The translations under genes and the position numbers were made by a program. Under the pieces are notes generated by a model that was not told where the DNA came from, did no database searches, and worked only from the letters and a program-made list of their open reading frames with translations. From Candidatus Pacebacteria bacterium RIFOXYA1_FULL_38_18 (lineage in GTDB: Bacteria; Patescibacteriota; Microgenomatia; UBA1400; PJMF01), in NCBI GenBank assembly GCA_001787405.1, contig MFWV01000001.1, positions 1 through 62,056 on the forward strand: 62,056 nt of DNA. Direction: 5' to 3'. Below, in pieces: positions 15,023 through 36,266 of the stretch. Position 1 is the stretch's first letter. Each line of letters opens with the position of its first letter.

Positions 15023-16720
15023 ATGAAACCCCAAGCAGTAATTGTCGCACGTGTATCTTCTTCGAAACAAGCCAATGAGAACGATTCGCCTAATCAACAA
15101 ATGAGAGATGGTATAGATTTTGTTGGAAAACAAGGATGGGTAGTTGACAGGACAATGAGTTTTGTAGAATCAGGAAGAAAATCAGAAAGAGAGTTTTTTA
15201 ATGAGGTTATTGACTATTGTGTTGATAGAAAAAACAATATTTCTTATTTAGTTGCAAGGGATATTAGTCGCTTTACTCGTGGAGGCGGCGTTGAGTACAG
15301 GCAGTTGAAAGATAGATTAAAAAAAGCAGGCGTCCAACTTCAAGATACGCAAGGGACGATACAATCAGACAAGAACTCAATGGAAAAGTATGGGCTTGAG
15401 TATTCCTGGAGTCGTTATTCTCCATCTGAAGCAGAGGAAATAAAACAAGCTGACCAAGCAAAAGATCAAGTTAGGCAATCTTTAACACTAATGTTGGGTG
15501 CAGAAATTGAATATGTTAGAGAGGGATATTGGAACAGGAGACCTCCATATGGGTTTGCAAATAAAAAGATTCAGACTGAGGAGCACGGCATAAGAACCAT
15601 TCTGGTTGAAAAACCCAGCGAAGGTATATTTATAAAGAAATTGTTTAGTATGCGATCAAAAGGGATTCATTCTGATGAAGAAATAGTAAGAGAAGTAAAT
15701 GCGTTGGGTTATAAAAGTAGGAAGTATTTCAGAAGAGATAAAAGAACCAAAAAGCCTATTGGTGCGGGAGGAGAAAAACCTCTTACAATCAAACAACTTC
15801 AAAAATATGTTAAAAATCCTATCTATGCAGGGGTAATCTGTGAAAAATGGACTCACTACAAGCTCGTTAAGGGCAGATTTAATGGTTTGGTTGACGTAGA
15901 TACCTTTAATCAGGCAAATGTCGGAAAGGTGATGATTAATGAAGACGAGACGGGAGTCTTCTTCTTAAAGCACGGAAAGCAAAATGAGGATGGGAGAATA
16001 ATAAAAAGAAGAACTAACAACAACCCTTTTTACCCTTATAAAAATGTTGTTTTATGCCCTATCTGCAAAAATCCACTTAAAGCGAGTGCGTCTACAGGAA
16101 AACTGGGTAAAAAATATCCTGCCTACCATTGCAATAGGAATCACGAATATTGGAGGAAATCGAGAGAAGATCTCCACGAAGTTGTTTATTCTTTTATCAA
16201 GAAGATACGTTTTAGCGATGAGTACATTACGTTATTTGAAGCCTCTTTTCTTGAGGTATGGAAAAATAAAAGAGATGAGACTCTGATGGAAAGTGAACAA
16301 GCAGAGAGAAATGTTGTTGATCTATTAGTAGAGCAAAAAAGTATTCGAGATGCAATCAAGATAACTACGAACAAGGCTATGATTCGTGCTTATGAAGATG
16401 ATTATGAAAATATTGAATTAAAAATACAGTCTGCCAGAGAGTTCAGAGCAGGCAAAGAAAAAAGGGAGCTTGACGCCAAGCTCGCAGTTAAAAGTGCAGT
16501 TTACTTAATGGAACACCTAGAAGAATTACTGATAGATCAGGAAAATCCCCTACAACAACAACAGTTGTTCGGACTGATGTTTGAGGAATTCCCTAATTAC
16601 AACGATTTACTTAGTGGAACACCAAAATTATCCCTTGCTTTCAAGCTAAATCAACAAAATGTTTTGTTAAAATCCGATATGGTGACCCCACGGGGAATCG
16701 AACCCCGGTTGCCGGGATGA
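15023..16720 (+). CDS. large serine recombinase (integrase)
   Basis: ARVSSSKQ catalytic Ser, ESG, DISRFTR, PPYG, NPIYAG, CPIC..YHC Zn ribbon and a coiled coil. Confidence 0.93.
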   Translation: MKPQAVIVARVSSSKQANENDSPNQQMRDGIDFVGKQGWVVDRTMSFVESGRKSEREFFNEVIDYCVDRKNNISYLVARDISRFTRGGGVEYRQLKDRLKKAGVQLQDTQGTIQSDKNSMEKYGLEYSWSRYSPSEAEEIKQADQAKDQVRQSLTLMLGAEIEYVREGYWNRRPPYGFANKKIQTEEHGIRTILVEKPSEGIFIKKLFSMRSKGIHSDEEIVREVNALGYKSRKYFRRDKRTKKPIGAGGEKPLTIKQLQKYVKNPIYAGVICEKWTHYKLVKGRFNGLVDVDTFNQANVGKVMINEDETGVFFLKHGKQNEDGRIIKRRTNNNPFYPYKNVVLCPICKNPLKASASTGKLGKKYPAYHCNRNHEYWRKSREDLHEVVYSFIKKIRFSDEYITLFEASFLEVWKNKRDETLMESEQAERNVVDLLVEQKSIRDAIKITTNKAMIRAYEDDYENIELKIQSAREFRAGKEKRELDAKLAVKSAVYLMEHLEELLIDQENPLQQQQLFGLMFEEFPNYNDLLSGTPKLSLAFKLNQQNVLLKSDMVTPRGIEPRLPG

Positions 16721-16754
16721 AAACCCGATGTCCTAACCGCTAGACGATGGGGCC
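16680..16754 (-). tRNA. tRNA-Glu(TTC)
   Basis: GGCCCCA/TGGGGTC acceptor stem, TCGGG-TTTTCAT-CCCGG anticodon arm, GGTTCGATTCC T-arm, CCA end. Confidence 0.95.
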
Positions 16755-28305: not shown

Positions 28306-29949
28306 ATGCGAGATTTTTTAAAAGCAAATTATTTTTCCAAATGGGTTTTTATTTTTTTAATCTTGGCAATTTTTGTTCGTTTTTATAATTTTCGGGAATT
28401 TTTATTTTTTACGGCTGATAATGGTAGGGATATCCAGCAAGTTCAGCAAATTGCTCAAGGCAACCTCACTTTGATCGGTCCCACCAGTGGTTTGCAAGGC
28501 TTTTATCTGGGTCCTTTTTGGTATTATCTAGGAGTGCCTGGCTATCTGCTGGCTCAAGGCAGTCCTTATGGGGAAGCGCTTTGGTTGATTGCTTTGGCTA
28601 GTTTGGCGGTGCCATTATTTTTGATGATTGGTAAATCATTATTTCCTGATCGGCCCAATTGGGCATGGCTTACTTTTTTATTACTAGCCTTTGTGCCAGG
28701 TAGTATTTGGGGAACTATTTTTGTTTTAAGTCCCATGGTAACTTTACCGCTGATGGCGGGAGTTTTGCTGTCATTTTGGCGAGCTCGTCACTCACGCTGG
28801 TGGCTCATGATTGGGTTTTTACTTTTGGGCTTGGTTTTACAAGCAGAGTTTGCTTATGGAATTTTTTTTGTACCTGTTATTTATGTCTTGATCGCTTGGA
28901 TTCGACAACGTTTTTCATTACTTGATTATGTCTTGGGTGGTTTGGCAATCTCGGTCACTTTATTGCCACAAATGATGTTTGAGTTGCGTCATCAATTTAT
29001 CATGACCAAATTTCTTTTCCAGGGTTTAACTACCACGGCTGATGAAAAGATGAACTGGCTGGAGTTTTTAGTACAAAGGATCGGGCAATTGTTTGGCAGC
29101 TTCAACTCATTGCTCTTGGGAAAAATTCAAGGAACATTTTTATTAGGTTTGGCACTGGCAATCTGTTTTGGTTTAGCACTACGTTATGTTTGGCGCAATC
29201 AAACGTTTTTAAAAAAGTCAGCCGAACAAGTCTATCGTTGGCAGTTATTGACAATCTTTGCCATTATTCCTTATGTGGGGTTTTTATTGTGGCGAGGCAA
29301 TCACAGTAATTTTTTTGATTATTATTTGACACCTCACTTCATTTTCTTAGTTCCTCTGGTGATACTGGGTATACAAAAATTGCCAAGCATCATCACTCAA
29401 TTCTTTCGTAATCATCAAAAAATAGATCAAGCAAGATTACAAATTATTCAAACAGTCTTGATTGCACTGATATTGAGTATTGCTTGGCTAAATTATCATT
29501 CCGCCATTATTTCTTTAGATAATCAAGCAGGCATGCAGTCTATTGAAACCGCTATTGTCAAAGTGCTTGCTTGGCAAGAAACTGATCGACAGCTAGTCGT
29601 TTCTCAAGAGGGTAGTTTTTCCAGTAGTATGATGACTTTTACACCCAATTATTTGACTGCCCAATATGACTACATGACGGCTTGGCAAACCGAAAAACAA
29701 GGTTTGCCTATCCCCTACACGCAGGTTTTGCCAGAGCAAGCGGTGGTTTATGCAGTTTTGGAACCAGATCGAGAATATCCAGAAATTCGTTTTACACCTT
29801 GGTATACAAAGATTACTACTGGCAGAATCTTGATTCGTCGAGAAAAAGTGGGTGTTTTGACACTGGAAACCTGGATGAAGCCTGATTTTGCCGAACAGTA
29901 TGGTTTTCAGGCGTATCAAGTTACTCCACAAGAGAGTTTTGGTTGGTAA
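28306..29949 (+). CDS. GT-C (ArnT/PMT-like) membrane glycosyltransferase
   Basis: F.AD.GRD, LIGP, GPFWYY N-terminal loop and many TMs; ATG 28306. Confidence 0.8.
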   Translation: MRDFLKANYFSKWVFIFLILAIFVRFYNFREFLFFTADNGRDIQQVQQIAQGNLTLIGPTSGLQGFYLGPFWYYLGVPGYLLAQGSPYGEALWLIALASLAVPLFLMIGKSLFPDRPNWAWLTFLLLAFVPGSIWGTIFVLSPMVTLPLMAGVLLSFWRARHSRWWLMIGFLLLGLVLQAEFAYGIFFVPVIYVLIAWIRQRFSLLDYVLGGLAISVTLLPQMMFELRHQFIMTKFLFQGLTTTADEKMNWLEFLVQRIGQLFGSFNSLLLGKIQGTFLLGLALAICFGLALRYVWRNQTFLKKSAEQVYRWQLLTIFAIIPYVGFLLWRGNHSNFFDYYLTPHFIFLVPLVILGIQKLPSIITQFFRNHQKIDQARLQIIQTVLIALILSIAWLNYHSAIISLDNQAGMQSIETAIVKVLAWQETDRQLVVSQEGSFSSSMMTFTPNYLTAQYDYMTAWQTEKQGLPIPYTQVLPEQAVVYAVLEPDREYPEIRFTPWYTKITTGRILIRREKVGVLTLETWMKPDFAEQYGFQAYQVTPQESFGW

Positions 29950-30204: not shown

Positions 30205-30885
30205 TTATTGGGCAAATTCTAGGACATTTGTGTCATCTTCTTTAAGCTCTCGGCCAAGGGCCCGATCGTCATAACGCATTTCTGCCATAAATTGATTGAC
30301 ACCGTCAGCCCAGGTTTCACTAGAAGCATATTTTTGACCAACCATTTCAGTGGTAATTCTGCCTTGATCTACATAGTAAGCTCGTAATTCTTTAGCTGCT
30401 CGTTCAAAACCCTCTTCATAACTAGCAAAATCCAGAGTGCCATCAGAATGAATGCCAAAGCCCAAGCAGTTATGTGGCGCTCCAGAGTGAGTTTTTTTAC
30501 ACAATTCACTCTCTCTCATGGCAATAGCCGGCAGTAAACGAAAATCCAGATTGTAATTATCTGCAATCTCTACCAAACGCTGGGCATAATAATCATAAGG
30601 AGTCATGGGCGAATTGTATCTTTTCAAAAAATTGGCCACGATTACGGTACGAGCGTCTTGGTTTTCTACAATGGTTTGTACTCCTCTCACATCAGGATTA
30701 TTCAAACCGGTACCTGCCAAGGTTTCGACTGGTTCTGATTCAAGTTCTTCTTGAAAAGCAAACATTTTTCTTTGTACTAGATCAGAGTAGTGCACGCCGG
30801 CAATACTGATCAAAATCATTCCAGCAGTGAGTAAGAGCCAAGCATAGGTCAAAAATAGTGATTGTAATCGTAATTTCTTAAACAT
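30205..30885 (-). CDS. membrane-anchored lysozyme-like (glucosaminidase/SLT-fold) protein
   Basis: N-terminal TM; YNLDFRLLPAIAMRES and NCLGFG motifs. Confidence 0.65.
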   Translation of the reverse strand: MFKKLRLQSLFLTYAWLLLTAGMILISIAGVHYSDLVQRKMFAFQEELESEPVETLAGTGLNNPDVRGVQTIVENQDARTVIVANFLKRYNSPMTPYDYYAQRLVEIADNYNLDFRLLPAIAMRESELCKKTHSGAPHNCLGFGIHSDGTLDFASYEEGFERAAKELRAYYVDQGRITTEMVGQKYASSETWADGVNQFMAEMRYDDRALGRELKEDDTNVLEFAQ

Positions 30886-32039: not shown

Positions 32040-32114
32040 GCGGGTGTAGCTCAACGGTCAGAGCTTCAGTTTTCCAAACTGATGACGAGGGTTCGACTCC
32101 CTTCACCCGCTCCA
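32040..32114 (+). tRNA. tRNA-Gly(TCC)
   Basis: GCGGGTG/CACCCGC acceptor stem, TCAGT-TTTCCAA-ACTGA anticodon arm, GGTTCGACTCC T-arm, TCCA end. Confidence 0.96.
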
Positions 32115-32158
32115 AAAGTGACAATGAGATGTACATAAAATGACAAAAATCAACAAGC

Positions 32159-32383
32159 ATGAAAGAACAAGTTCAAAATTGTAATGTGGGTAAGACTTTT
32201 GAAGTAGTTATCAATAGTCCATTTTTTCCAGTAAATGGTTCTGGTGTTGTTTTTCAAGAATGGTGTAATAAAGAGACAAGTGAATTTCCTGACGGTTACG
32301 CGCATCTTTGTACTGATACTAATCGACAAAATTTACTCTGCCATAATACAAGGTGCGAAAATCAAAAAGCTGAAGGAAGCTAA
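32159..32383 (+). CDS. small Cys-rich hypothetical protein
   Basis: 74 aa with 5 Cys; ATG directly after the first phased repeat block. Confidence 0.55.
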   Translation: MKEQVQNCNVGKTFEVVINSPFFPVNGSGVVFQEWCNKETSEFPDGYAHLCTDTNRQNLLCHNTRCENQKAEGS

Positions 32384-32460
32384 ACGTCTTTTAGTATTTT
32401 ATAAAACTTGGAATATCCATACGGATTTTTAATTGATCAGGTTTTAAAATAAGCTCAGGA

Positions 32461-32514
32461 GAGTGAATAAGACGGAATAAGTTTTCGAAAAAGCAATGGG
32501 AACAGGCTCGAGCT
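32461..32514 (+). repeat. cassette right-end repeat copy 1
   Basis: gagtgaataagacggaataagttttcgaaaaagcaatgggaacaggctcgagct; near-identical copy at 35455-35509. Confidence 0.9.
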
Positions 32515-32587
32515 GTGTGCCGTCACCAACTCCAGACGTGACAGAAATATACATAAATTAACAATAAAGTTACAATAAATAACATCC

Positions 32588-33259
32588 ATGAATCCAATAG
32601 ACATATCAGCAATAACGTCAGAACAGCTTAGAGCTAAAGCATATTTAGCTTCATTTCCTGAATACTACGAATTGGCATCAGTGATAGAAAATAGTCTTTG
32701 GCATAATAATCAAAATGTTTTAGATCATATGATTGGAGTTTTTGAAGGATTGGAAAAAATACTTAAGTTTGAAAATGTTTCCAATTCACAAAAGAGCTTA
32801 ATAAAAAAGTATTTATCAGAGGTTATTGGCAACAAAACTAGACTGGAAATTCTCACTGTTGCAACTTTACTTCATGATATTGCCAAAATTGACGTGTTCG
32901 TTAAAAGACCAGATGGAACAGCTGGATGTCCAGGGCATGAGCTAATTGCAGCTGGAAGAGTAAAAAACTTTGCAGAAAGATTTGATCTCGATGATAAGGC
33001 AGAATCATATGTGGAACGGATAGTCAGATATCACGGTTTTATATCCGAAATACTCAACTTGATGATCGCTAGTGGAAATCGGGAAAAGTATTTGACTATA
33101 TTTACTAAAACAGTGGGAGATATTTCAATTGAACTGATATTACTAATGCACGCTGATTTATTAGGTTGTGACTTAGAGCAAGGCGATAAAAAGGGATACG
33201 ACGATAGAATTGATTTCTTAGGTTGGATGTTGCAGAAGCAACTTAAAGAAATGAAATAA
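32588..33259 (+). CDS. HD-domain hydrolase resembling the HD module of CCA-adding enzymes
   Basis: FPEYYEL..V.EN..WH...VLDH, LLHDIAK, GHELIAA, VRYH and AD motifs. Confidence 0.8.
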   Translation: MNPIDISAITSEQLRAKAYLASFPEYYELASVIENSLWHNNQNVLDHMIGVFEGLEKILKFENVSNSQKSLIKKYLSEVIGNKTRLEILTVATLLHDIAKIDVFVKRPDGTAGCPGHELIAAGRVKNFAERFDLDDKAESYVERIVRYHGFISEILNLMIASGNREKYLTIFTKTVGDISIELILLMHADLLGCDLEQGDKKGYDDRIDFLGWMLQKQLKEMK

Positions 33260-33383
33260 AATTCTGTCTCTGTGGCTAAAATGGATCACTTGTGCGCCAC
33301 CAGTTCCCTAAAAGTAAGGTATTTTTACCACGATGATCATTTGGTAGTCTAATTATATTTTCGACGAATGATTGGAATAATTT

Positions 33384-33749
33384 TCACAGACGATAACGGG
33401 GATCCATCAGAGATACAGATATAAAATATATTACAAGGAATAGAAGAGAGATCATTACATATTTTTCGAGTTTTGAGTTTTCTTTATTTTTCATAACTTT
33501 TGGTATTGCCACGATAAGAAAGACTTCAATCCCAAATGAAATAAATCCTAAAGCAATAATTATTTGTTGGATAAGTGGTGGAAATGCTGATAAATCTTCA
33601 TTTACATTTCCAAGCAAATCTAAAAAAGTAGGAATTTTAAGGACATCTTGAGTAATATCTTTCAAAAAATGAACAATAATAATCAAAAAAATAATGGGAA
33701 GGGAGAAATGCCAAATTCTATTTAAATATTTCTTCATAAAGCAAGCCAA
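33384..33749 (-). CDS. hypothetical 3-TM membrane protein
   Basis: Three hydrophobic segments, HFLKDITQD motif; likely starts at MKKYL. Confidence 0.65.
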   Translation of the reverse strand: MACFMKKYLNRIWHFSLPIIFLIIIVHFLKDITQDVLKIPTFLDLLGNVNEDLSAFPPLIQQIIIALGFISFGIEVFLIVAIPKVMKNKENSKLEKYVMISLLFLVIYFISVSLMDPRYRL

Positions 33750-34007
33750 TTTTACTCCATTTGTTAAGACCCCATCTTCAAATGTTTTTTAAAGCCTGAA
33801 GTTGTAAAATAAGGTCAGTTGTAATGTAATAGTGAAGACCGTTTTTTACTTTAGAAATAAGAGGTAAATCTGGGTCGAGTAGATATCCTTTGATATACTC
33901 GTCCTAGCTAAACAGGTTCGAGCCAATTACGGTTACCCGCTCCAATAGTGACAGAAATAAACAGAAAATTACTAGGAAATTACATAAATTTATAATGAAT
34001 TTACAAT

Positions 34008-34751
34008 ATGACTGCTGAAATGAAGAATATTACCTTTGATCAAATACAATTGGAGGCAGAATCTTTCGCAGTAAATTATAGAAAAACTCACGATGTTCCA
34101 CCTTTCCCATCAGATGTTCAATTACAAAAATATAAGAAAATATTAAATACAAAATATTCTCAAGTTGTTGAACTAGTTAAAAAACGGTTGTCGGAAGTAG
34201 AGTCCGAAGGCGGACATGGTTATGAGCATCTAGAGGATGTTGCAACTAGAGCTGGATTCATAGCCGAAACTGAATGCGATTTCAGGGGTATTAAAAACGA
34301 CCAGAGAAAAGAAATTATTAATGAGACAGTACTAGCTGGCCTGTTACACGATATTGAACGACACTTAGGATTTGGCGAAGACCACATGGTCAATGGGGCT
34401 GATACTGCAATAAGAATTCTTGCCGCAGTTGGGATTAAGGGTAATGTTGTTGCCACAGTTGTTAGAAATCACGACCATATGAATTTTAGCCCAACAGACC
34501 AACTTTTAGAAATAGTTTTTGGTTCAGTTTTTGACGCAGATCATTTTAGATATGGATTGGAAAGAGAAGATACTTTTTGGAGAATGGAAGAGAAAAAAGG
34601 AAAGGAAGCTTCAGAGGTAATTCATGATTATAAGTTTTTGCCAGCTTATATTCACGTTTGGAAAACTAACTACGGAAAAGAAGTGGGCCCGAAGTATATT
34701 GAATTTGGATTAGCTGTGGCGAAACATGTTGAAAAAACTTTTAGCGTGTAA
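34008..34751 (+). CDS. HD-domain phosphohydrolase
   Basis: GHGYEH, LLHDI, H...GA, NHD and FDAD motifs. Confidence 0.85.
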   Translation: MTAEMKNITFDQIQLEAESFAVNYRKTHDVPPFPSDVQLQKYKKILNTKYSQVVELVKKRLSEVESEGGHGYEHLEDVATRAGFIAETECDFRGIKNDQRKEIINETVLAGLLHDIERHLGFGEDHMVNGADTAIRILAAVGIKGNVVATVVRNHDHMNFSPTDQLLEIVFGSVFDADHFRYGLEREDTFWRMEEKKGKEASEVIHDYKFLPAYIHVWKTNYGKEVGPKYIEFGLAVAKHVEKTFSV

Positions 34752-34823
34752 AGTCGGTCCCTGCAGCTAAAATGAATTGCCAGCGCACCAATAGTGACAA
34801 TGGTCACTACAAATGTACATAAA

Positions 34824-35405
34824 ATGACAGAAAATAACATTAAAGCAATACTCTTCGATTTTATGGGCGTTTTATTATTCAAAAGAGGCAATTACGTTCC
34901 AGATCCCCTTGTTGACGAAATAGATAACATAATTGGAAGTGTTACTAATGATCAACTATTTGAAGAAGAAACTTGCAAAAAATTCCATTTAACTAAAAAT
35001 GAATTTGATGGTATTCTCGACAAAGTTATAAACAAGTATGAGCCTTATCAACCACTTTGGGACTCATTACCTAATTTACGAAAGAATTACAAATTGGCAA
35101 TCGTAAATAATGGCACTAGTTTGACTCTGTCAAAATTTAAATCCAAACTTGGTTTAGATATAAAATTTGATGCTTTTGTTTCATCAGCATTAAAAGGTAT
35201 GAAAAAACCTGAGCCAGAAATCTACTTATTCTCGGCTAAAAAACTTGGTGTTATTCCCAGTGAGTGTCTGTTTATGGATGATTCGTATGAAAACATAAAA
35301 GGCGCAAATCAAGTGGGAATGAAAACGTTGTGGTGGAACAAAGAGAAAGAGAGAGATGAAATGTTACAAGAGCTTATCTCTTTAGTTAATATTTCTCAAA
35401 GCTAG
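34824..35405 (+). CDS. HAD family phosphatase
   Basis: FDFMGVL, KKPEPEIY and FMDDS..NI.GA..VGM motifs. Confidence 0.88.
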   Translation: MTENNIKAILFDFMGVLLFKRGNYVPDPLVDEIDNIIGSVTNDQLFEEETCKKFHLTKNEFDGILDKVINKYEPYQPLWDSLPNLRKNYKLAIVNNGTSLTLSKFKSKLGLDIKFDAFVSSALKGMKKPEPEIYLFSAKKLGVIPSECLFMDDSYENIKGANQVGMKTLWWNKEKERDEMLQELISLVNISQS

Positions 35406-35454
35406 AAATACTCAGATGTTCTTTTTGCAAATTTAGTTTTAGGATAGGATCAAG

Positions 35455-35509
35455 AGTGATAAGACGAAATAAGTTTTGAAAAAGCCATAATGGGAACAGG
35501 CTCGAGCTA
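35455..35509 (+). repeat. cassette right-end repeat copy 2
   Basis: gagtgataagacgaaataagttttgaaaaagccataatgggaacaggctcgagct. Confidence 0.9.
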
Positions 35510-35588
35510 GTTAAAACATTTTTTTCACCTAGTTAAACTCTAGCGTTCCCCACTTTGCAATTTTTGCTAATTGATGTAATATTCTGAT

Positions 35589-36266
35589 ATGAATAGATTG
35601 GGAAAGATAGAAACTGCGGTATTAGATTTTGATGGAGTGATGGCTATTTTACCTCCTGAATTCTGGATTGATGTCAGGATAAAAGCGTTGGAAGAGATCG
35701 CCGGTAAGAAAGTAACTACAGATGACGAGCTTTATAGGAAATTTGTAAAGCTGGGTGAAGATCCTCAAATAGGTTGGAAAGAAGCATATCTTCGTTTGGG
35801 AGGTGATTTCTTATTCTTTTCAAGGATTGTAAATAGTGCAGAAAAAGCGGCATATCTCAAATTTGATTCCGAACTTTTGGAAACGATCAATGCTTTGCGA
35901 GAAATAGTAAAAAAGATAGTGGTTTTTTCTGGTTCCAATTATGGGTCGGTGGTGGATGGTTTGAACGTGCTTTTTAATGATATGGGTACATTGAAAATGA
36001 TTGATCGAATCGTTACATCAGATCTTTTGCAAGAAACGACCAAGCCAGATTTAACTGCTTATCAACAAATGTTAAAAAAATGCAGTATTAATCCCAAAAC
36101 AGCAATGATGGTGGATGATTCTCCTGCAGAAATTGCCAGTGCTAAAAAAGCAGGAATGAAAGGAGTGTTGGTAGGCAATCATCCAGAATCAGTTTTAAAG
36201 AAAATCAAACCAGACTTACAAATCCCCAATATTTATAGTTTAATATCGATTTTGGCTGGAAATTAA
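35589..36266 (+). CDS. HAD family hydrolase
   Basis: LDFDGV, KPD and MVDDS..EI.SAKKAGM motifs. Confidence 0.88.
   Translation: MNRLGKIETAVLDFDGVMAILPPEFWIDVRIKALEEIAGKKVTTDDELYRKFVKLGEDPQIGWKEAYLRLGGDFLFFSRIVNSAEKAAYLKFDSELLETINALREIVKKIVVFSGSNYGSVVDGLNVLFNDMGTLKMIDRIVTSDLLQETTKPDLTAYQQMLKKCSINPKTAMMVDDSPAEIASAKKAGMKGVLVGNHPESVLKKIKPDLQIPNIYSLISILAGN

Follow-up and report, generated by a model that had tools for sequence, protein, structure and literature searches.

Integron cassettes are promoterless and bounded by attC sites, the attI1 site carries accessory direct repeats (DR1 and DR2) beside its simple site, and integrase-less arrays are known as clusters of attC sites lacking integron-integrases (CALINs). 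Here, we describe an array of four small mobile cassettes without a recombinase gene at the 3′ end of a tRNA-Gly(UCC) gene in a 62,056-nt stretch of DNA (hereafter the window) from Candidatus Pacebacteria bacterium RIFOXYA1_FULL_38_18, and the degenerate direct repeats, spaced at about one helical turn, that open each cassette. The genome holding the window (contig C1) spans 832 kb in 13 contigs and contains 44 tRNA genes. Like an integron, the locus stacks co-oriented, mostly single-gene cassettes at a single fixed position, and every cassette brings a recombination site of its own; direct repeats of a recombinase half-site adjoin a simple site, and the available tyrosine recombinases are of the Xer/integron type, which lacks an arm-binding domain. 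Unlike in integrons, the platform is the 3′ end of tRNA-Gly rather than attI beside intI, with no integrase adjoining; the repeats lie on the cassette side; the core GCTCCA is flanked by GGTCAC/GTGACA instead of GTTRRRY, and no attC-like fold is supported; and a promoter-like leader seems to come with many of the cassettes themselves.

In the lambda attP arm, too, several direct repeats adjoin a recombination core at intervals of roughly one helical turn (Int P'1–P'3 and the Xis micro-filament sites), and their cooperative binding along a single face of the DNA is taken to give the recombination complex its shape. The spacing here is 10–11 bp; in contrast to lambda, the core half-site is itself the first member of the array, which extends as far as the start codon of the cargo, and no arm-binding integrase or Xis-like gene was found. 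Sites without a recombinase gene, mobilization in trans, and the ability to stand in tandem with relatives are likewise known from cis-mobilizable elements (CIMEs) and further non-autonomous elements with att sites at their flanks; however, CIMEs are deletion derivatives of larger integrative and conjugative elements, whereas we see a diverse family of minimal cassettes for which no autonomous relative was found. We would class the repeat arm with the accessory direct repeats in att sites, and we find the surrounding cassette system of greater interest than the arm.

Tycheposons, one case of tandem accretion of integrative elements at tRNA genes, are defined by their own site-specific integrase together with hallmark genes for mobility and replication (Hackl et al., bioRxiv 10.1101/2020.12.28.424599). 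The likeness lies in islands that grow by repeated site-specific insertion beside a full-length tRNA gene, partial tRNA copies that separate the elements, and small accessory cargo, and the difference in the cassettes of 0.4–2 kb seen here, which hold one or two genes and no recombinase or element-borne integrase. A full-text search, with subscription journals and supplements outside its coverage, found no description of such cassettes in the candidate phyla radiation (CPR; Patescibacteria), whose members have tiny genomes and whose gain and shuffling of accessory genes is poorly understood.

Four junctions lie behind the tRNA-Gly(UCC) gene (32040–32114, + strand; ARAGORN; Rfam tRNA, 72 bits), whose 3′ end (..ACCCGCTCCA) forms the attB-like insertion site, and in each of them a copy of the tRNA end is followed by three variable bases and GTGACA. 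They read ..ACCCGCTCCA AAA GTGACA (32118), ..ACCAACTCCA GAC GTGACA (32538), ..ACCCGCTCCA ATA GTGACA (33948), and ..CAGCGCACCA ATA GTGACA (34794). A first-pass annotation, made from the letters of the window, had described helically phased ACA repeats running from each junction to the cargo start codon, and the sequence bears this out in every coordinate that it listed. In cassette 1 (arm at 32118–32158, +; repeat families D4 and D6), GTGACA is followed by three more ACA at 12/10/10 nt (ACA at 32121, 32133, 32143, and 32153), the array stopping 6 nt short of the ATG at 32159. The arm of cassette 2 (32538–32587, +; sequence and Tandem Repeats Finder) has five ACA at 10/10/11/10 nt (32541, 32551, 32561, 32572, and 32582) before the ATG at 32588. 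Six units at 10–11 nt make up the arm of cassette 3 (33948–34007, +; sequence and Tandem Repeats Finder), with ACA at 33951, 33961, 33982, and 34003 and two replacements, ACT at 33971 and ATA at 33992; its ATG follows at 34008. For cassette 4 (34794–34839, +; D4 and D6), the ACA at 34797, 34817, 34827, and 34837 were placed exactly by the annotation, which overlooked a further one at 34809, so the supposed 20-nt gap becomes 12 + 8; the ATG at 34824 lies inside the array. The strings said to be common to blocks are there as well, AGTGACAATG and ATGTACATAAAATGACA in cassettes 1 and 4 and GTGACAGAAATA in cassettes 2 and 3 (repeat families D3, D4, D6, and D1/D2), and Tandem Repeats Finder reports period-11 arrays at 32553–32584 and 33976–34007.

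The claim that an array follows every GTGACA needs narrowing: this is true of the four junction copies, while the other GTGACA in the window have no array. The hexamer occurs 15 times in the window (7 on the + strand), which is not above the chance expectation of 21.2 ± 4.4. Likewise, chains of at least four ACA at 10–12 nt steps number 6 over both strands of the 832-kb genome, compared to 8.5 ± 2.2 in block-shuffled genomes, yet two of the six sit in the ~200 nt directly behind the four junctions; it is their placement, not their frequency, that is special.

Where the crossover falls can be read from loci in relatives and metagenomes. At terminal junctions, GCTCCA is followed by a repeat-free host flank that recurs across loci (L187 and L215, ..CCA[A/T]AGCGAAATGGTTTTG; also G115). 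Near-identical leaders, including the variable triplet, stand with homologous cargo behind different tRNA-Gly genes, both UCC and GCC (L198/L238 versus L199/L267) and CCC and UCC (L226 versus L280; L185 versus L186). From these recurring flanks and shared leaders, and from the range of upstream partners given below, the crossover is in, or just left of, GCTCCA, and it follows that the cassette owns the triplet, GTGACA, and the repeats, and that the repeats always travel with the cargo. The cassettes move between tRNA-Gly isoacceptor genes and between lineages without carrying a recombinase. The right end carries GGTCAC, GGTTAC, or CGTCCC 11 nt left of GTGACA, and we infer an inverted pair around a GCTCCA overlap (GGTCAC/GGTTAC .. 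11 nt .. GTGACA), with GTGACA as its right half-site, an arrangement that would follow the usual core plan of tyrosine recombinases. Fragments of DNA reads at the locus were of low depth, too broken up to reveal excision, and gave one weak joint (side 28) and no excision product; loose ends at 33942 in two DNA runs represent different cassettes with this right end in common as far as ..GCTC.

The cassettes share a common build. A triplet of variable bases is followed by a GTGACAGAAA-type unit 0, by three to five more degenerate direct copies (nTnACAnAAA) at 10–11 bp, and by co-oriented cargo; the cassette is closed by a conserved right end, whose last elements are a GGTTCGAGC box and the tRNA 3′-end copy (..CC[A/C]GCTCCA). 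To find homologous junctions, we scanned metagenome contigs with the pattern CCCGCTCCANNNGTGACAGAA, which ends before the first downstream unit, so that junctions were not picked by their repeats. The scan returned 102 stretches, 100 of which had at least 70 nt downstream, comprising 81 AT-rich junctions and 19 GC-rich chance matches. By eye, most of the 81 have the same build (..GCTCCA, three variable bases, GTGACAGAA(A/G)T, and 10–11 bp units of the form nTnACAnAAA up to the cargo ATG), and the array begins 3 nt after ..GCTCCA in these 81 as in the four junctions of the window. The upstream partner was tRNA-Gly(CCC) in 19, UCC in 18, GCC in 13, and a cassette right end in 5, with 20 other or undetected and 6 stretches too short; right ends lie 360–1935 nt past the junction. 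For five loci (L208, L248, L214, L246, and L261), ARAGORN called no tRNA upstream of the junction, yet the sequence ~90 nt before it resembles the 3′ half of a tRNA-Gly with 20–40 extra bases in or beside the T-loop. Such loci may represent tRNA-Gly genes that are interrupted or contain an intron, or else junctions that are older and have decayed.

Genomes were searched with further patterns. Pattern GTGACAN{7,9}ACATAAANNNACA had 6 matches in 286 genomes of the order and none in its control, and five of the six are junctions behind tRNA-Gly(UCC), including one in a genome of another family (G194); the sixth, in G027, lies in a tRNA-free stretch that looks coding by eye and was taken as chance. 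A scan of genome contigs with ACCCGCTCCANNNGTGACA gave at least 120 matches, mostly chance hits in unrelated phyla, with two homologous junctions (L105 and L079) among the matches listed; it added two named metagenome-assembled genomes, from Candidatus Woesebacteria and Candidatus Shapirobacteria. A looser pattern, CCANNNGTGACA, matched everywhere in 61 genomes and was set aside as uninformative. In nine relatives with a detectable orthologous tRNA-Gly, eight have no array, and in G001 a homologous arm is recognizable from which most AC steps are gone. One relative, G115, has a single cassette in full: its left arm is the same, a cargo open reading frame (ORF) follows, and its right end is of type A, with a further exact 18-nt tRNA end behind it. 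The right end in G150 is of the second type. The first and last ~80 nt of the G115 contig concerned (C7, 2344 nt; L053) are mutually reverse complementary, which looks like a fold-back assembly artefact, so the context past this cassette should not be trusted. The signature ..GCTCCA nnn GTGACAGAAAT with phased units tags a widespread family of minimal cassettes, stacked behind glycine tRNA genes of ultra-small groundwater bacteria, and can be searched for in any metagenome.

After removal of near-duplicates, the 81 AT-rich junctions left 65 non-redundant ones for analysis of spacing. Distances between ACA peak at 10 nt (66 pairs), 20–21 nt (53), and 30–31 nt (52), and 178 of 343 pairs are in phase, compared to 67.0 ± 6.9 (maximum 88) in 500 dinucleotide shuffles. 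Counting unbroken AC at 9–12 nt steps from GTGACA against 1000 shuffles, chains of at least three occur in 38 of the 65 junctions (3.8 in shuffles, maximum 14) and chains of at least four in 27 (0.86, maximum 5); the four junctions of the window score 4, 5, 4, and 5. Given that the junctions are related by descent, these counts measure conservation of a pattern and not independent events. The repeats do prove to be direct, degenerate copies of the hexamer at the junction, spaced roughly one helical turn apart, as had been proposed. With the register retained in other genera, in another family, and in many metagenomes, and the periodicity of homologous junctions far above that of shuffled controls, the pattern withstood both tests that the first-pass annotation had itself suggested for it.

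Aligned on GTGACA, the 65 junctions give the consensus GTGACAGAAAT aaACAnAAA kkTACwwrAAA tTTAC.., with the C of AC at index 4, 14 (65%), 24 (68%), 34/35 (43% + 34%), and 45 (45%). AAA runs are in phase with it (index 7, 17, 27–29, and 38–39), and the mean of 270 units is A-n-T-T-A-C-A-(A/T)-A-A-A. The label of ACA half-site is fair yet incomplete, since GTGACAGAAA is the first and best-kept unit and the conserved core is AC with T at −3, then an A-tract (nTnACAnAAA). Conservation is highest beside the core and falls towards the ATG. In a subset of units, the form is ACATAA, which presumably resembles the conserved arm of dif sites and which we note as a lead only.

Taken together, the repeats are quite possibly, although we hold this with slightly less than even confidence, the cassette-side accessory arm of a recombination site, consisting of degenerate direct copies of the core half-site to which a protein supplied in trans would bind. 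Since the proximal units are locked to the core, have no −10-like hexamers, move with the cassette, and have decayed in the fixed-looking G001 junction, we read them as such an arm. Its phased copies would either load several molecules of a protein encoded elsewhere onto one helical face or maintain a bend of phased A-tracts; candidates for the protein are the recombinase and a small factor, Xis-like or architectural, aided by that bend. The arm would thereby distinguish the cassette side of the site and prepare the synapse, including its direction. Judged from sequence, the distal part of the arm probably doubles as a promoter and start region: the less conserved distal units would overlap the promoter and start of the cargo and, in many cassettes, supply the ATG itself (..ACATAAAATGACA..).

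The main rival explanation, which we consider rather unlikely, is expression alone: the repeats would serve as a promoter carried by the cassette, together with a (near-)leaderless start region. TTGACA-like (GTGACA, TGTACA, TTTACA) and TAnAAT-like (TAAAAT, TACAAT, TATAAT) hexamers recur every 10–11 nt, so that a usable −35/−10 pair would stand just before the ATG whatever lies upstream. The cargo is always co-oriented, and in most cassettes it starts 40–63 nt from GTGACA; a unit often includes the ATG. The last ACA lies 3–7 nt before the ATG in 24 of 50 leaders examined. The host, moreover, scarcely uses Shine-Dalgarno sequences: a strict one (GGAG/GAGG) precedes 7% of 523 long host ORFs, which equals background, so leaders without one are normal here, and we rejected their absence as a special feature of the cassettes because the whole genome lacks them. 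Several host genes have a −10 box 5–10 nt before the ATG (for example at window positions 35589, 36335, and 37800), and the two features together suggest widespread leaderless or near-leaderless mRNAs in this organism.

We scored −35/−10 pairs out of 12, with the −10 ending 4–13 nt before the ATG. Among 52 cassettes, 48% scored at least 8 and 21% at least 9; the corresponding figures were 27% and 11% for the 523 host ORFs, 12% and 3% for shuffled leaders, and 7% and 1% for random positions. Junctions 2 and 3 of the window score 9 (TATACA-17-TACAAT and TTACTA-16-TATAAT, the latter within the arm of cassette 3 and ending 11 nt before its ATG). However, about half of the cassette leaders fall short of 8, as do junctions 1 and 4 of the window with their scores of 5 and 4, and a generic promoter scan of the island found 13 sites, compared to 14.3 ± 3.5 in shuffles. 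The enrichment over mononucleotide shuffles is also partly built in, because the unit resembles a −35 box. The register is fixed to the crossover core, whereas alignment on the ATG leaves ~0–0.3 bit of information per position, and the best-kept proximal units contain, by inspection, no −10-like hexamer. The coupling to cargo expression that the first-pass annotation had offered as a possibility is plausible, given the co-oriented cargo and the promoter-like pairs enriched before the ATG, while for the protein filament that it placed on the array, no protein was identified.

Two further explanations dispense with a sequence-reading protein. Under the first, the A-tracts (AAA, AAATT, or AAAGTT each 10–11 nt) would merely curve the DNA by the core in place of an IHF-type protein, and the AC steps would go unread. 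The AAA peaks of the 65 junctions, in phase with AC, fit such a bend, as does the drift of unit sequences under a retained period, but the T(−3) and AC positions are conserved as well as the A-tracts are, which makes bending as the sole role improbable. Under the second, slippage would have multiplied a 10–11 nt unit at the end of an ancestral cassette, and the copies would be inherited with no function of their own. The number of units ranges from 1 to 8 among junctions and differs even between homologous cassettes (L200 versus L249), and G001 shows that the pattern can decay. Against this, the period and the AC/A-tract pattern persist over two genome families, 65 diverged junctions, and unrelated cargo while the unit sequences diverge, and we regard a neutral by-product as a poor prospect.

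Several observations weigh against the accessory arm. The co-oriented cargo and an array that often ends at or over the ATG fit a role in expression at least equally well, and promoter-like hexamer pairs are enriched just upstream of the ATG. Conservation could partly be inheritance, because the junctions share descent. At a pitch of 10 bp, neighbouring clamps of full-size tyrosine recombinases would probably collide, as judged from Cre and Xer footprints. A search of 140 family genomes with a second strict pattern, CCANNNGTGACAN{6,9}ACAN{6,9}ACA, gave five matches and also five with the reversed-pattern control, although four of the five real matches are tRNA-Gly junctions (two in this genome, one each in G115 and G150). 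No binding protein for the arm was identified, and no tyrosine or serine recombinase was found in 124 non-redundant ORFs (≥150 aa) within 2 kb of the 81 junctions. The two PF00589 genes of the genome are Xer-like, lie on other contigs (C7, about 28880–29818, and C11, about 157297–158166), and encode only SAM-like and catalytic domains without an arm-binding N-terminal domain. The same Xer-like pair is present in G001, G115, and G194 and also in the cassette-free G002 (one of the two was found in G150), from which it follows that nothing dedicated co-occurs with the cassettes.

Other searches for the enzyme were similarly negative. A Pfam scan of the island ORFs found no recombinase gene (no PF00589), and tyrosine recombinases other than Xer-like ones were not seen in the genomes searched, with serine recombinases looked for in this genome only; among the 124 ORFs near junctions there is one DDE transposase. 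Neither a Xis-like gene nor an integrase with an arm-binding N-terminal domain was found. Two scans of viral contigs for an autonomous relative yielded one related junction, in a 59-kb record without PF00589, and in the other scan 12 chance coding matches. When short inverted-arm motifs were listed genome-wide and beside both Xer-like genes as dif-like sites, no candidate resembled the cassette core or unit by eye.

The first-pass annotation had likened the arrays to the ends of IS607-family elements, and a small serine transposase polymerizing on direct repeats (of the IS607 type, or another serine recombinase) could be imagined here. The genome does carry two large serine recombinases adjoining tRNA genes, one beside tRNA-Asn and one beside tRNA-Glu. 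Neither is near tRNA-Gly, though; the best matches to the IS607 model (NF033518), at 38.8 and 20.3 bits, are far under the cut-off of 110 and fall within large serine recombinases elsewhere, so that, unlike in the IS607 family, no transposase of this type reaches the cut-off in the genome. There is also no recombinase in or near any array, no Resolvase-domain protein among the 124 ORFs around the 81 junctions, and the insertion keeps strictly to one site, the tRNA 3′ end, and involves a long shared core. The analogy finds no partner in this genome, and we think a serine-recombinase end very improbable.

A broader reading, which we put forward as rather doubtful, is that the locus is an integron-like gene-capture platform of a new kind in ultra-small CPR bacteria. 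The 3′ end common to the tRNA-Gly genes would serve as the docking site, the composite cassette site would be made up of a T-loop-like box, the copy of the tRNA 3′ end, and the phased half-site array, and a housekeeping Xer-like recombinase or another enzyme would act in trans, with the array directing recombination and supplying promoter and start codon. If the arm does couple recombination to expression, the cassettes would amount to a compact natural device for gene capture and expression. The composite site offers a defined substrate of 100–150 bp for finding the missing recombinase.

Within the window, the four cassettes measure ~0.4–1.4 kb each and are bounded by decayed copies of the tRNA 3′ end. 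Window positions 35553–35590 match the sequence immediately upstream of a HAD gene common to both this genome and G002, therefore the island extends over ~32115–35550. The interval between tRNA-Gly and tRNA-Lys is ~6.3 kb here and, within the same genus, 6.2 kb with other genes in G001 but only 3.4 kb in G002 and 3.1 kb in G003; the tRNA-Gly locus is an insertion hotspot and not host backbone.

Cassette 1 carries a cargo ORF of 74 aa (32159–32383, +) with no Pfam family, followed by a right end (32426–32537, +; repeat families D1, D3, D5, D8, and D10) of what we call type A, which reads TTTTAAAATAAG..CAGGAG..GGCTCGAGC..CCGTCACCAACTCCA and finishes in a decayed copy of the tRNA 3′ end. The cargo of cassette 2 (32588–33259, +; 223 aa) contains an HD domain (PF01966, E 5.3e-08), and its right end (33786–33947, +; D1, D3, and D5) is of a second type, ..GTAGATATCCTTTGATATACTCGTCC..CAGGTTCGAGCCAATTACGGTTACCCGCTCCA. 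The 247-aa cargo of cassette 3 (34008–34751, +) matches no Pfam family at E ≤ 0.01; the right end after it (34752–34793, +) is short and decayed, ending ..CAGCGCACCA, with a 74% match to the tRNA end (D3). In cassette 4, a HAD hydrolase of 193 aa (34824–35405, +; PF00702, E 8e-18) precedes a truncated type-A right end (35459–35510, +; D8 and D10), and the host backbone is back by ~35553. Across the cassettes found at other loci and here, the cargo families include HD, NUDIX, HIT, HAD, nucleoside phosphorylase, deaminase, Fic, GNAT, kinase-like, and methyltransferase proteins.

A second ORF within cassette 2 (33384–33749, − strand) encodes a membrane-like protein of 121 aa (ORF list and protein comparison). 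It shares 32% identity (E 9e-09 for the pair) with a + strand gene of G003 (L045, 8886–9212) in the same interval between tRNA-Gly and tRNA-Lys, and G001 has, by eye, a similar gene. Either a piece of the backbone was captured in inverted orientation, or the gene itself is mobile.

The right ends before junctions 2 and 3 and at 35459–35510 are conserved and non-coding, and both types close in GG(T/C)TCGAGC and a tRNA-like end. An attC-like or tRNA-like fold was considered and rejected, as RNAalifold on 33 right ends gave only an invariant 4-bp GAGC/GCTC pair without covariation; Rfam finds only the tRNA at the locus. The type-A right ends (window 32413–32432, L230, L207, L214, and L220) open with a hairpin of 3–4 bp and a T-run, and by eye the stem varies in a compensatory manner (ATCC..GGAT, ACCA..TGGT, CCA..TGG). 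This hairpin could be a weak terminator that insulates the cassettes from one another.

A second, separate tRNA-linked island of the window (15023–16754) lies at tRNA-Glu(UUC) (16680–16754, −), the 3′ end of which is overlapped by 41 nt by a + strand gene for a large serine recombinase of 565 aa with a Resolvase domain. A long direct repeat of tRNA-Glu was searched for at the far side of this island and was not found. Returning to tRNA-Gly, a LysM-domain protein gene is the usual upstream neighbour of the targeted tRNA gene across the 81 metagenome loci (~20 of the 124 ORFs scanned), and in the window the upstream neighbours are a glucosaminidase-like gene (30205–30885, −) and a 335-aa ORF without a family.

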